In this document: positions 60,778 to 63,585 of the stretch, piece by piece
Position numbering within the stretch: the stretch's first letter is position 1
How the letters are laid out: each line of letters starts with the position of its first letter
NCBI GenBank assembly: GCA_964016885.1
Contig: OZ024743.1
Location: forward strand, 232,376,001 to 232,440,000
Length of the DNA stretch: 64,000 nt
Direction of reading: 5' to 3'
Origin: Eledone cirrhosa
Lineage: Eukaryota
Made by a program: the position numbers and the translations under genes
Notes under the pieces: generated by a model
What the model was told of the DNA's origin: nothing
What the model saw: the letters and a program-made list of their open reading frames with translations, nothing else
Database searches by the model: none

Positions 60778-61112
60778 ATATAAGAACAAAAGATGGTTAA
60801 AGGAGTTCCATGTATTTTATTATGCGCATTTCAAAAACAAATATCATCATGCAATAATATTTGTGTTTTCATCAGATAAAACAGGAGGACATGATATGAA
60901 GGCTAAAAAACACTTCTGGATAGTTCAGTTTTAAATCAACATATCATATGTTGATTTAAAACTGAACTATCCACAAGTGTTTTTTAGCCTTCATATCATG
61001 TCCTCCTGTTTTATCTGATGAAAACACAAATATTATTGCATGATGATATTTGTTTTTGAAATGCGCATAATAAAATACATGGAACTCCTTTAACCATCTT
61101 TTGTTCTTATAT
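60778..61112. repeat. Palindrome with two family K hammerheads (60813-60883 -, 61007-61077 +)
   Basis: TGTTTTAT-CTGATGA-AAACACAAATATTA..TGATATTTGTTTTT-GAAA-TGCGCA-TA|ATAAAATA; arms nearly perfect; apex tcaacatatcatatgttga. Confidence 0.93.
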
Positions 61113-61564
61113 ATTATATATATATATATATATATATATATATATATATAAGCCGTTTCGACAGCTATTTCTGGAAATAGTCGTGGAAACGGCTTGAGCC
61201 CTGCTATCGCTGTCAAATATTTTCCGACATATATATATATGAAAACGTATGACCGCGACGACAGAGTTCAAGCCGTTTCGACGGCTATTTCTGTACTAAA
61301 TAGTCCAGAAATAGGCGTCGAATTAGCCAGAAATAGCCGTCCAAACGGCTTGACCTCAGCCGCCGGGGTTATACTTTTTCCTATTACCCACTCTACTACC
61401 CTAAGTATTGAGTACTCTGGTGCGTTATGGTCCATCTGGTTCCTTATCACAATTCCTTCGTTATATATATATATATATATATATATATATATATATATAT
61501 ATATATATATATATATATATATATATATATATATATATATATATATATATATATATATACAATG

Positions 61565-61810
61565 ATATTAAATAAATGGAAACTATATTTATAAAACCAT
61601 ATTTATTCTATTATATATATTTCAAGGGTACCAAAGTTTTGTTACCCTTGAAATACATATAATAGAATAAATATGGTTTTATAAATATAGTTTCATTTAT
61701 TTAATATGATTGAATATTATACTACAGAAAACTTGTTGAGCGCTTTGAATCAGCTATAAACATTTACATTTGTTGAATTATCAACAAATTAAATATCCCT
61801 TTTGCCTATA
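61565..61810. mobile_element. Family G-related pLTR fragment folded back inside hammerhead stem II
   Basis: Palindrome 61565-61707 centred on ttcaagggtaccaaagttttgttacccttgaa; the right side continues like 40690-40850. Confidence 0.82.
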
Positions 61811-62367
61811 TATATACATGGGGAGAGAGATAGTGATGTTCATACTTGGAAAATAAAGATGGTGTTAGTAGAAATATAAGCATATACATATTGAAGCTAA
61901 TGCCGACATTGTTATTTAATGACAATATCATATAGCTGAAGCAGGGTTACTAAAGAATACACTAGACTGTGTCTAATAACAACCACTAAGAAAATTTTCT
62001 AAGTCGTCATGTAACATGTAAGAAAACAATACAAAATTGATAATACATAGGAATATGGAAATGTGGAAATATATATATATATATATATGTGTGTGTGGGG
62101 GGGGGGGGGGGTTTATATATATATATATATATATATATACATGTACATATATATTATAAAATATATATACATATATATACACGTGTATATATATATATAC
62201 ATATATATATATATATATACATAATATTATATATATATACATATATATACATATATATATATTTATATACATATACATATATATGTACATATATATATAT
62301 ATATATATATATATATATATATATATATATATATATATATATATATATATATATATATATATATATA

Positions 62368-63020
62368 TGAATGAAGAATGGCGTGCTGCGTTGTTGCGGA
62401 CGTAAACATATGAATAAAAGTAGACCAAGAGATAAAATGTCCTCATCAGTAGTCTGCTGATTATCGTTGGTATTTCGACGCATTAAAGACTAGATACTTA
62501 AAATCAGTGCGAGCGATAACTCAATTAAGTTATCGGGACAGTGGGAAAACACAGGGAGGAAACAAACACATGGTACTAATTCAACGTAAAGAGAGGAAAA
62601 CAGTGACAAGTCAATGAATCCTGTGGGCTTAAGTCCGACAAATCAAATTGACGAGGAGAAATAGACACGTCCGAGCCGCGAGAAGATTGAGAGAGGAAAG
62701 AAATTCAAGCAGGTCAGACGGGAGGAAGTGAGAGAGCGGGAGAATAAGAGAGGGAATGAGTGAAAGTGTGAGGAAGAGGCCAGCCAACAGTGAGTGACCA
62801 GCAGCGGGAGTAGAGGAAGGCAAGAGGTGAAGGCGAGAGAAAAGGTGATAGCTGTAAGGTGACAGAAAAAATACAAACCACAGCGAAGGAAAAAAATATG
62901 TGAATGAAGAATGGCGTGTTGCGTTGTTGCGTATATGAACATAAGAATAAAAATAGACCAAGAGATAAAATGACCTCATCAGTAGTCTGCTGATGATCGT
63001 TGGTATTTCGACGCATTAAA
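62368..63020 (-). mobile_element. Second copy of the 30.8-kb direct-repeat element (period 533 bp)
   Basis: 62368-62486 is repeated at 62901-63020; the internal part is homologous to 30900-31265. Confidence 0.87.
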
Positions 63021-63245
63021 TATATATATATATAAATATATATATAAATATATACATATACATATATCTATCTATACATATACATATATATATATATATA
63101 TATATATATATATATATATATATATATATATATATATATATATATATATATTTATATGTAGGAGGTGAGTTTTATTGTAGTACTATAAAGCAATGCAGAT
63201 ATCGGATAAGAAGCACTCTACAGTTTGTAGGACGGGAGTATACAT

Positions 63246-63585
63246 AATATATAAGATCAAAAGATGGTTAAAAGAGTTCCATGTATTTTATTATGCGCAT
63301 TTCAAAAACAAATATCATCATGCAATAACATTTGTATTTTCATCAGATAAAATAGGAAGACATGATATGAAGGTTAAAAAACACTTGTGAATAGTGCAGT
63401 TTTAAATCAACATGATATGTTGATATAAAACTGCACTATTCACAAGTGTTTATTAACCTTCATATCATGTCTTCCTATTTTATCTGATGAAAACACAAAT
63501 GTTATTGCATGATGATATTTGTTTTTGAAATGCGCATAATAAAATACATGGAACTCTTTTAACCATCTTTTGATCTTATATATTA
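63246..63585. repeat. Second family K palindrome (hammerheads 63284-63354 -, 63476-63546 +)
   Basis: Same structure as 60778-61112 with copy-specific substitutions. Confidence 0.93.

Follow-up and report, generated by a model that had tools for sequence, protein, structure and literature searches.

Palindromes in the Eledone cirrhosa genome as probable paired insertions of a Penelope-like retrotransposon

How does a genome come to hold palindromes whose two arms match each other within a copy yet differ from one copy to the next? The question is raised by a pair of inverted repeats in a 64,000-nucleotide stretch of the Eledone cirrhosa genome (assembly GCA_964016885.1, contig OZ024743.1, positions 232,376,001 to 232,440,000 of the forward strand; hereafter the window, numbered from its first letter). 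A preliminary description of this DNA, which assigned the repeats to a family K, proposed that each palindrome had been made de novo from one template by fold-back synthesis at a built-in hairpin or, alternatively, that the arms are homogenized by conversion. We read region 60500-64000 of the window directly, in conjunction with a repeat search, and compared the two copies with their relatives across the genome. The palindromes are probably two separate insertions, in (TA)n, of the 3'-end piece (the pseudo-long terminal repeat, pseudo-LTR) of a Hydra-type Penelope-like element (PLE), each likely made by both cut strands priming reverse transcription of the same RNA, with the two copies joined head to head. 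The structure is a known kind of PLE insertion (inverted, tail-out, 5'-truncated, and set in (TA)n) in a new family, and no new palindrome maker is needed.

Two palindromes and their genome-wide family

Both palindromes were found by direct reading and by the repeat search, which agree on copy 1 (arms 60776-60944 and 60946-61114, 169 nt, 99% complementary, 1 nt between them) and on copy 2 (arms 63239-63413 and 63417-63591, 175 nt, 97% complementary, 3 nt between). Their layout is as follows, with unit positions counted in the RNA sense of the PLE 3' end (reverse transcriptase is abbreviated RT).

60747..60781, no strand: (TA)n microsatellite left of copy 1, putative target and/or priming tract (direct reading)
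60776..60944, minus: left arm of copy 1, PLE 3'-end unit positions ~1-176, no tail
60945..60945: junction base C between both arm 5' ends of copy 1
60946..61114, plus: right arm of copy 1, unit ~1-176, no tail
61104..61149, no strand: (TA)n right of copy 1 (direct reading)
63021..63150, no strand: TA-rich microsatellite left of copy 2 (direct reading)
63151..63238, minus: 88-nt tail of copy 2, unit ~177-262, between two putative RT start sites, on this side only
63239..63413, minus: left arm of copy 2, unit ~1-176
63414..63416: junction gat of copy 2
63417..63591, plus: right arm of copy 2, unit ~1-176, no tail
63585..64000, no strand: TA-rich microsatellite right of copy 2

The words that tell the copies apart occur on both arms of each: aagaacaaa, gttcag, acaggagga, and aaggcta in copy 1 against aagatcaaa, gtgcag, ataggaaga, and aaggtta in copy 2, with a five-site haplotype of AGCGT/AGCGT on the arms of the former and CATAA/CATAA on those of the latter. 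The turns read tcaacat-atcat-atgttga and tcaacat-gat-atgttga, respectively. On these points, namely two palindromes alike between arms and different between copies, with all four words and both turns as given, the preliminary description was accurate. Copy 1 belongs to a rare tail-less class, and copy 2 to the usual one-tail class, in which a non-palindromic 88-nt piece extends one side.

A search pattern with 16 fixed bases on either side of the turn (CAGTTTTAAATCAACA N0-16 TGTTGATTTAAAACTG) retrieved 1601 places in the 3.0-Gb genome and 0 in a reversed control. When copies 1 and 2 were themselves used as queries, each returned more than 1000 first-look candidates, and for each query 40 of 40 scored places were full-length at 91-100% identity. 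Our main sample comprised the first 50 turn places on contig C1, and is unbiased with respect to arm sequence. Outward from the turn, the unit consists of the arm (~170 nt), TATATAT, a tail on one side only, and then (TA)n; at least five TA repeats lie within 60 nt of 47/49 left flanks and 45/46 right flanks. Of the 50 copies, 47 have the 88-nt tail on exactly one side, 3 lack it, and none has it on both sides, as against a ceiling of 50% one-sidedness under independent choice; the 47 are a minimum, given that a copy scored as tail-less (L051) shows a diverged tail. The tail word itself occurs at 5050 places, three times the count of intact turns.

Four public runs, of which one is labelled organism A and three are labelled otherwise, also yield contigs with the palindrome family, and in those of run X1 the turn (63410-63413) is joined to many different points of the other arm; among the pieces listed, none covers the entire stretch. 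Over window positions 63151-63585, examined in runs X1-X3, the summed contig word depth over the unit reaches ~1e6 in X1, far above what ~5000 copies in a 3-Gb genome would be expected to give in plain low-coverage DNA. Four of the 50 sampled copies (L054, L068, L082, and L083) have a common sequence past the left TA tract, ..atgaccctccccaagtataacaa(ta)n, which by its sequence looks like another repeat ending in (TA)n.

The parent element

To what larger sequence does the unit belong? We answered this from a second sample, the first 48 tails on contig C1 (the tail-sampled set). In 19 of these 48 the sequence runs on upstream of the unit into conserved sequence, which spans all ~430 nt available in each of the 19. 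Lone units make up a further group, cut short inside the unit (7/48) or ending at positions 2-9 (2/48). The remainder are inverted pairs with both arms full (8/48), inverted pairs with a short arm (7/48), inverted pairs with a 122-197-nt spacer (2/48), a pair whose partner is mostly gone (1/48), and two tailed units set head to head (2/48). An earlier candidate, in which the 262-nt unit was a stand-alone protein-less element with a 5' end at TCATG..., was dropped, as tail-sampled copies run on into a long element.

The long element is best seen at locus L183, where, on the minus strand, a unit with tail (7305-7047) is followed by an 808-codon open reading frame (ORF; 6994-4571), ~975 nt of untranslated sequence, and a second unit with tail (3595-3335), giving a period of 3710 bp, with a further partial copy upstream. 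L185 is arranged likewise, around a frame of 775 codons. The order unit-tail, ORF, untranslated region, unit-tail is that of the partial tandems in which PLE pseudo-LTRs are recognized. In the parent the ORF leader stands directly after the tail (185 such tail-to-leader junctions in the genome), and in tandem copies the ATG follows ~80 nt after it. The family K arm is accordingly the last ~176 nt before the tail at the PLE 3' end, and in tandems it is the pseudo-LTR just upstream of the ORF.

The 808-aa ORF carries the blocks YRDD, DKT, CNCPVKNKC, and LIY...YFG, and has 37 relatives of ~700 aa at E 6.7e-64 or better; PF26215 and PF28514 are listed for these relatives. The closest named one, P0011 of Argonauta hians, has the public name "GATA zinc finger domain-containing protein 14-like" and is probably a misnamed retrotransposon ORF. 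A profile of the ORF and 23 relatives was set against 8 ORFs taken from PLE loci in this genome (5 of which were scanned against Pfam, with RVT_1 in 4 and GIY-YIG in 3): hhalign returned a probability of 98% (E 1.4e-13) over 576 columns, the DKT/DKG block, the RT, and the GIY-YIG block being colinear in the alignment. BLASTP gave 9e-6 and 2e-5, whereas a profile search against solved structures gave no match. From these comparisons we read the parent as a 3.7-kb PLE whose ORF is a predicted RT with a C-terminal GIY-YIG nuclease. DKT in place of DKG, RWK, and a linker of the form CxCX5C (CNCrxkxxC in the hhalign family consensus), together with insertion in (TA)n, would place it in the Hydra clade, by motifs and profile comparison rather than by a tree.

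Other PLEs of this genome are distinct from family K. A GIY-YIG search gave 10597 first-look candidates, of which 150 of 150 scored lay above the Pfam cut-off, and 23 other PLE loci found in this manner had no sequence in common with the unit. Two further loci, L098 and L099, showed no similarity to the family and no long ORF. Another PLE family (L133, L134, and L137), likewise with no sequence similarity to family K, has (TA)n at its end; ~390 nt past its stop codon lies CUGAAGA..GAAA, with a helix III formed by the palindrome AGUACU.

Arms, joints, and the making of a palindrome

We compared the arms of 42 clean copies from the sample of 50 across 143 columns, leaving out L059, whose partner arm is missing, and seven copies with gaps. 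Within a copy, the median number of arm-to-arm differences is 1 (mean 2.05, maximum 9), and between copies it is 9 (mean 9.13); the contrast that the preliminary description had drawn from two copies thus holds genome-wide. Of the 190 carrier cases of variants present in at least three copies, 177 have the variant on both arms, whereas variants confined to a single copy affect one arm 60 times and both arms 18 times, from which it follows that inherited variation is symmetric and variation arising in place is asymmetric. The diagnostic differences between copies 1 and 2 are ordinary segregating variants of the family, which occur in many combinations. Arms are alike within a copy because they have one common template and one birth date, and unlike between copies because the source elements differ.

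An identity so much higher within than between copies is also what gene conversion, or hairpin-directed repair, would produce were it to keep both arms of a locus alike. The rate of drift speaks otherwise: arms diverge by 0.0072 changes per nt per arm, and the unpaired tail, which has no partner to be corrected by, by 0.0066 private changes per nt (41 copies), so the arms begin identical and then diverge at a neutral pace, and conversion is unneeded. Within-copy differences of up to 9 in 143, and the identical arm-to-arm differences of two copies 4.2 kb apart (L014 and L015), are likewise out of keeping with ongoing correction, which moreover explains neither variable truncation nor the one-sided tail. 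We regard conversion as very unlikely, and that alternative of the preliminary description falls away.

The turn behaves differently from the arms. The 42 copies contain 17 different turn sequences: TCAACATATGTTGA 17 times, a single-base form (C/G) 7 times, TCAACATATATGTTGA 4 times, and 14 other forms once each. In some turns of the family the beginning of the arm is repeated in short tandem. The arm distance is 10.26 between copies that agree in their turn and 8.87 between copies that do not, and 1922 of 2000 label shuffles gave a same-turn distance as small or smaller. Arm haplotypes are therefore passed on independently of turn type, and a fresh turn forms at every insertion. Among the best matches to copy 1, 15 of 18 have the C/G turn, but this semblance of inheritance was rejected as selection bias: the query had contained the turn, and no link appears in the unbiased sample. 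Of the 50 junctions, 36 show an overlap of 2-6 nt, 3 are blunt, and 11 have filler of 1-9 nt; these classes were scored with a TCATG reference and change little with the parent sequence TTTTCATATG, the single-base C/G turn being readable either way.

Partner arms are frequently unequal. In a set enriched for lopsided copies (extra copies in fetched loci, plus 20 places selected for the reach of their longer arm), every pair (20 of 20) joins a tailed arm to a tail-less one. In 16 the tailed arm is truncated from within and its partner has full length, in 2 the reverse holds, and in 1 both arms are short. All 15 abutting pairs of the tail-sampled set also combine one tailed and one tail-less arm. 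Inverted pairs with their joint within the unit account for 17 of the 48 tail-sampled insertions, and in 15 of those 17 at least one arm ends near the turn point; with the 7 lone truncated units, these 17 give the combination of adjacent inverted copies and high 5' truncation that is characteristic of PLEs. The element also forms larger inverted pairs, joined at parent positions 581, 1740, 1969, 2034, 3264, and 3613, and three of them (L186, L187, and L189) again have one tailed and one tail-less outer end.

These observations divide the fold-back proposal in two. That each palindrome arose de novo from one template is borne out by the shared variants on both arms, by turns that are not inherited, by joints of microhomology or filler, and by variable truncation of the partner. 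The built-in hairpin is another matter. In a snap-back mechanism, one cDNA would fold on a hairpin built into its own end and copy itself, which would readily yield near-identical arms, would suit the position of a parental palindrome exactly at the commonest turn, and would accommodate the 3 tail-less copies of 50 (window copy 1 among them) as self-copied tail-less cDNA. The parent sequence at the turn (...ACTTTTCATATGTTGATTT), however, has as its only self-complementary part the 6-nt palindrome CATATG, which leaves no room for an intramolecular loop; the parent contains no tcaacat..atgttga hairpin, and these words are merely the first 7 nt of both inverted arms. A self-copied strand would, in addition, bear its tail on both sides or on neither, as opposed to the single side seen in 47 of 50, and could not yield a short tailed arm beside a full tail-less one, the arrangement in 16 of 19 lopsided pairs. 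Snap-back is in our judgment unlikely.

Perfect inverted arms flanked by TA might also suggest a palindromic DNA transposon (a miniature inverted-repeat transposable element, MITE, or foldback element with a TA target) or a fold-back artefact of assembly or library preparation. The arm, however, belongs to a retroelement with an RT/GIY-YIG ORF, it is shortened from the inside at many points, and its tail is asymmetric, none of which befits a MITE or foldback transposon. An artefact would not pick one element and one position in it, and the 1601 loci have different flanks and drifted arms; the artefact that the preliminary description had named as its own refutation is excluded as far as sequence can tell. 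We give this pair of explanations practically no weight. A target duplication is unreadable inside (TA)n.

What can be seen directly is that the arms lie tail-out in TA repeats, that one arm is tailed and the other stops at the internal TATATAT, that partner arms are often shortened from the inside at variable points, and that the joint differs from copy to copy. Published work on PLEs supplies a mechanism with these properties. Craig et al (2021; PMC8557442) describe strong 5' truncation of PLE insertions, an inverted and likewise 5'-truncated copy often lying beside them, and a tail of 30-40 bp confined to one end; they report (TA)n insertion in almost all Hydra families, with DKT, RWK, and CxCX5C as traits of the clade. 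Frangieh et al (2024; PMC11167929) found that the purified Anolis Poseidon PLE protein cleaves and extends both target strands in vitro at an AT-rich target, that reverse transcription starts at two adjacent internal sites with the tail being the stretch between them, and that the hammerhead is dispensable for insertion. Extension of both strands on one template, combined with two start sites, yields a tail-out pair with common variants, a joint at the far end, and unequal outer ends.

Applied to family K, the arm ends at unit ~176 and ~262 would be two RT start sites, one per target strand, and both cDNAs would run to a single RNA end near ...TTTTC|ATATGTTGA. Their 3' ends would then pair via 2-6 nt of self-complementary microhomology (AT, ATAT, or CATATG) and copy each other, after which the arms would drift apart neutrally.

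Several observations weigh against this account. Two loci (L184 and L148) are tailed on both sides, and the 3 tail-less copies of 50, window copy 1 included, depart from the one-tail rule in the other direction. Pfam scans of the ORF and four relatives picked up neither an RT nor a nuclease family. The tail, although confined to one end as expected of a PLE, is 88 nt long as compared with published tails of 30-40 nt. Frangieh et al (PMC11167929) saw no strand difference in start-site use, whereas the one-tail rule would imply a division of labour, and both the RNA 5' end and the use of a single RNA are deduced here from genomic DNA. Finally, at 39 pseudo-LTR-ORF junctions of long copies, 0 of 39 upstream pseudo-LTR 5' edges fell within 9 nt of unit position 1 (range -902 to +218), so that long copies lend no support to a transcription start at that position.

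The last point bears on where the arms stop. In the parent, sequence continues upstream past the turn point (...AAAACTACTTTTC|ATATGTTGATTT), yet in ~1600 stubs both arms end within a few bases there. The edge test drew on 42 junctions in 40 fetched stretches, out of the 185 genome places (39 aligned and 3 gave no alignment); ~13 edges break at -263 to -267, where the reference copy differs structurally. With no long-copy edge near position 1, the stop would be specific to the short products. We favour an RNA 5' end inside the pseudo-LTR as its cause, PLE transcription starting inside the pseudo-LTR in studied cases. If the RNA is terminally redundant, one pair of start sites would lie near its 5' end, and in tandem copies strand transfer would mask that end. 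Alternatively, the stop may reflect loop cutting of stub hairpin transcripts, or a stall followed by pairing via CATATG.

The first of these alternatives can be extended to a scheme in which stubs breed stubs: hairpin RNA from read-through stubs would be cut in the loop, and the resulting arm-plus-tail RNA copied by the PLE enzyme, giving a non-autonomous lineage. This would explain why ~1600 copies end at the same few bases though the parent runs on, why the 39 long copies lack such an edge, and how 18 single-copy variants come to be on both arms. Such a lineage sits poorly with the presence of the same haplotype classes in long-copy units and in stubs, and with turns that are not inherited with haplotype, and a competent template would come only from the tailed strand; we think it quite unlikely. 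Priming of one RNA by both strands accordingly remains our preferred account, and in a more specific form that we put forward only tentatively, a dimeric enzyme would sit on one RNA, each subunit cutting one strand and starting at its own site (176 or 262), from which the strict one-tail rule would follow; the cDNAs would run off at the pseudo-LTR transcription start and pair via CATATG, such that the turn would mark the promoter start, with the stubs stemming from a second, 5'-proximal set of start sites in the terminally redundant RNA and together documenting how the element integrates.

The striking perfect palindromes of this genome are, on our preferred account, ordinary by-products of one retrotransposon family, and should not be taken by annotators for hairpin genes, MITEs, or assembly errors. 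The family amounts to thousands of natural PLE insertion products with readable joints. The one-tail rule, the microhomology spectrum of the joints, and the common arm stop translate into testable predictions on PLE integration, addressing how two start sites are divided between strands and where the template RNA begins. If transcribed, ~1600 perfect 170-bp inverted repeats would constitute a large potential source of double-stranded RNA (dsRNA); the dsRNA hairpin, small interfering RNA, and ADAR roles that had been suggested for the window copies may follow, and do so from palindrome geometry alone.

Hammerhead-like motif, neighbouring repeats, and known systems

The preliminary description also held that a transcript of either palindrome would contain a single sense ribozyme. 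Each arm carries one hammerhead-like motif.

61008..61077, plus: motif of copy 1 right arm; CUGAUGA 61016-61022, GAAA 61058-61061, predicted cut after 61069
60813..60882, minus: motif of copy 1 left arm, mirror image of 61008-61077
63476..63546, plus: motif of copy 2 right arm; CUGAUGA 63484-63490, GAAA 63527-63530
63284-63354, minus: motif of copy 2 left arm, mirror of the right-arm motif

The motif consists of helix I (UGUUUUAU/AUAAAAUA), CUGAUGA, a 12-bp helix II, GAAA, and then helix III, in which A-U and U-A pairs are closed by a palindromic GCGC; the cleavage-site base is A. All parts of a type I hammerhead core (CUGANGA, GAAA, a UH site, and three helices) can thus be read, and in an unconstrained minimum-free-energy structure the core is framed by helix I (8-9 bp) and helix II (12 bp). 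None of the 20 shared variant sites lies in the 20 columns of core and helix III, and the 4 within helices are A-to-G changes that keep pairing via G-U, a pattern that lends slight support to a hammerhead. No Rfam family of any kind reached its gathering score in the window, and hammerhead models gave no match at E<=10 in 3.1 kb or in 111 nt, where only chance miRNA- or snoRNA-like hairpin matches appeared, and we therefore name the motif hammerhead-like only: a complete core can be read once per arm, as had been described, but the name of ribozyme does not carry over with it. Arm ends of the lopsided and tail-sampled copies show no pile-up at the predicted cleavage site near unit position 123.

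Cervera and De la Pena (2014; PMC4209133) describe minimal type I hammerheads in metazoan repeats and PLEs that act as dimers, with paired motifs on opposite strands 100-700 bp apart. Family K resembles these in its CUGAUGA...GAAA core, long helix II, 2-bp helix III with palindromic GCGC loop, and opposite-strand pairs, and differs from those described there in a helix II of 12 bp, a helix I of 8 bp, and the lack of an Rfam match; it is a candidate ribozyme.

Other repeats crowd around the two palindromes. Just left of copy 1 is a 169-nt direct repeat (60049-60217 and 60582-60750, 96% identical, 533 nt spacing), and directly to its right a cluster of short direct and inverted repeats (61150-61360; AAGCCGTTTCGAC.GCTATTTCTG and partners). 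A separate perfect palindrome with ~60-nt arms (61575-61700) directly follows a long (TA)n, and has only a chance miRNA-like hairpin score in Rfam. Two ~115-nt direct copies (62368-62480 and 62899-63018) lie 530 nt apart with the outer side of each adjoining a TA microsatellite, a CTGATGA word in each, and a purine-rich ~420-nt stretch between them; they may be another microsatellite-associated retroelement piece. Further off, 14710-23284 and 50900-53944 hold remnants of non-LTR (LINE-type) retrotransposons with endonuclease/RT and zinc-finger ORFs.

Joining of two cDNAs at an insertion has a parallel in human L1 twin priming, where one RNA also serves as template for priming by the second target strand, and the two cDNAs, joined by microhomology, give an inversion. 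In L1 the cDNAs come from different parts of the RNA, whereas in family K they would copy the same part, with a palindrome as the outcome.

Among PLEs, family K agrees with the Hydra clade as set out by Craig et al (PMC8557442) in its single ORF of RT with C-terminal GIY-YIG, the DKT/RWK/CxCX5C motifs, (TA)n insertion, pseudo-LTR partial tandems, adjacent inverted 5'-truncated copy, one-end tail, and hammerhead-type motif in the pseudo-LTR. It differs from the Hydra families described there, mostly under 3 kb, in a 3.7-kb parent, an 808-aa ORF, and an 88-nt tail, and in having most in-unit joints at one position, which gives ~1600 near-perfect 340-bp palindromes. With Anolis Poseidon (PMC11167929) it would have in common the extension of both strands and two start sites bracketing the tail, as read here from genomic copies, and it has an AT-rich target as well; exactly one tail in 47 of 50 genomic copies sets it apart, as do clade and host.

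Metazoan non-LTR retrozymes are also short, hammerhead-bearing, related to PLE pseudo-LTRs, and dependent on PLE enzymes (Cervera and De la Pena 2020, PMC7229834; Li, Clavereau and Pollet 2026, preprint 10.64898/2026.07.22.740005). Head-to-tail arrays of the unit alone were not seen among the 50 turn-sampled and 48 tail-sampled copies, which are inverted pairs, lone units, or parts of long elements. Unlike the head-to-tail tandem arrays and small circular RNAs of the retrozymes in those accounts, family K therefore takes the form of dispersed inverted pairs.

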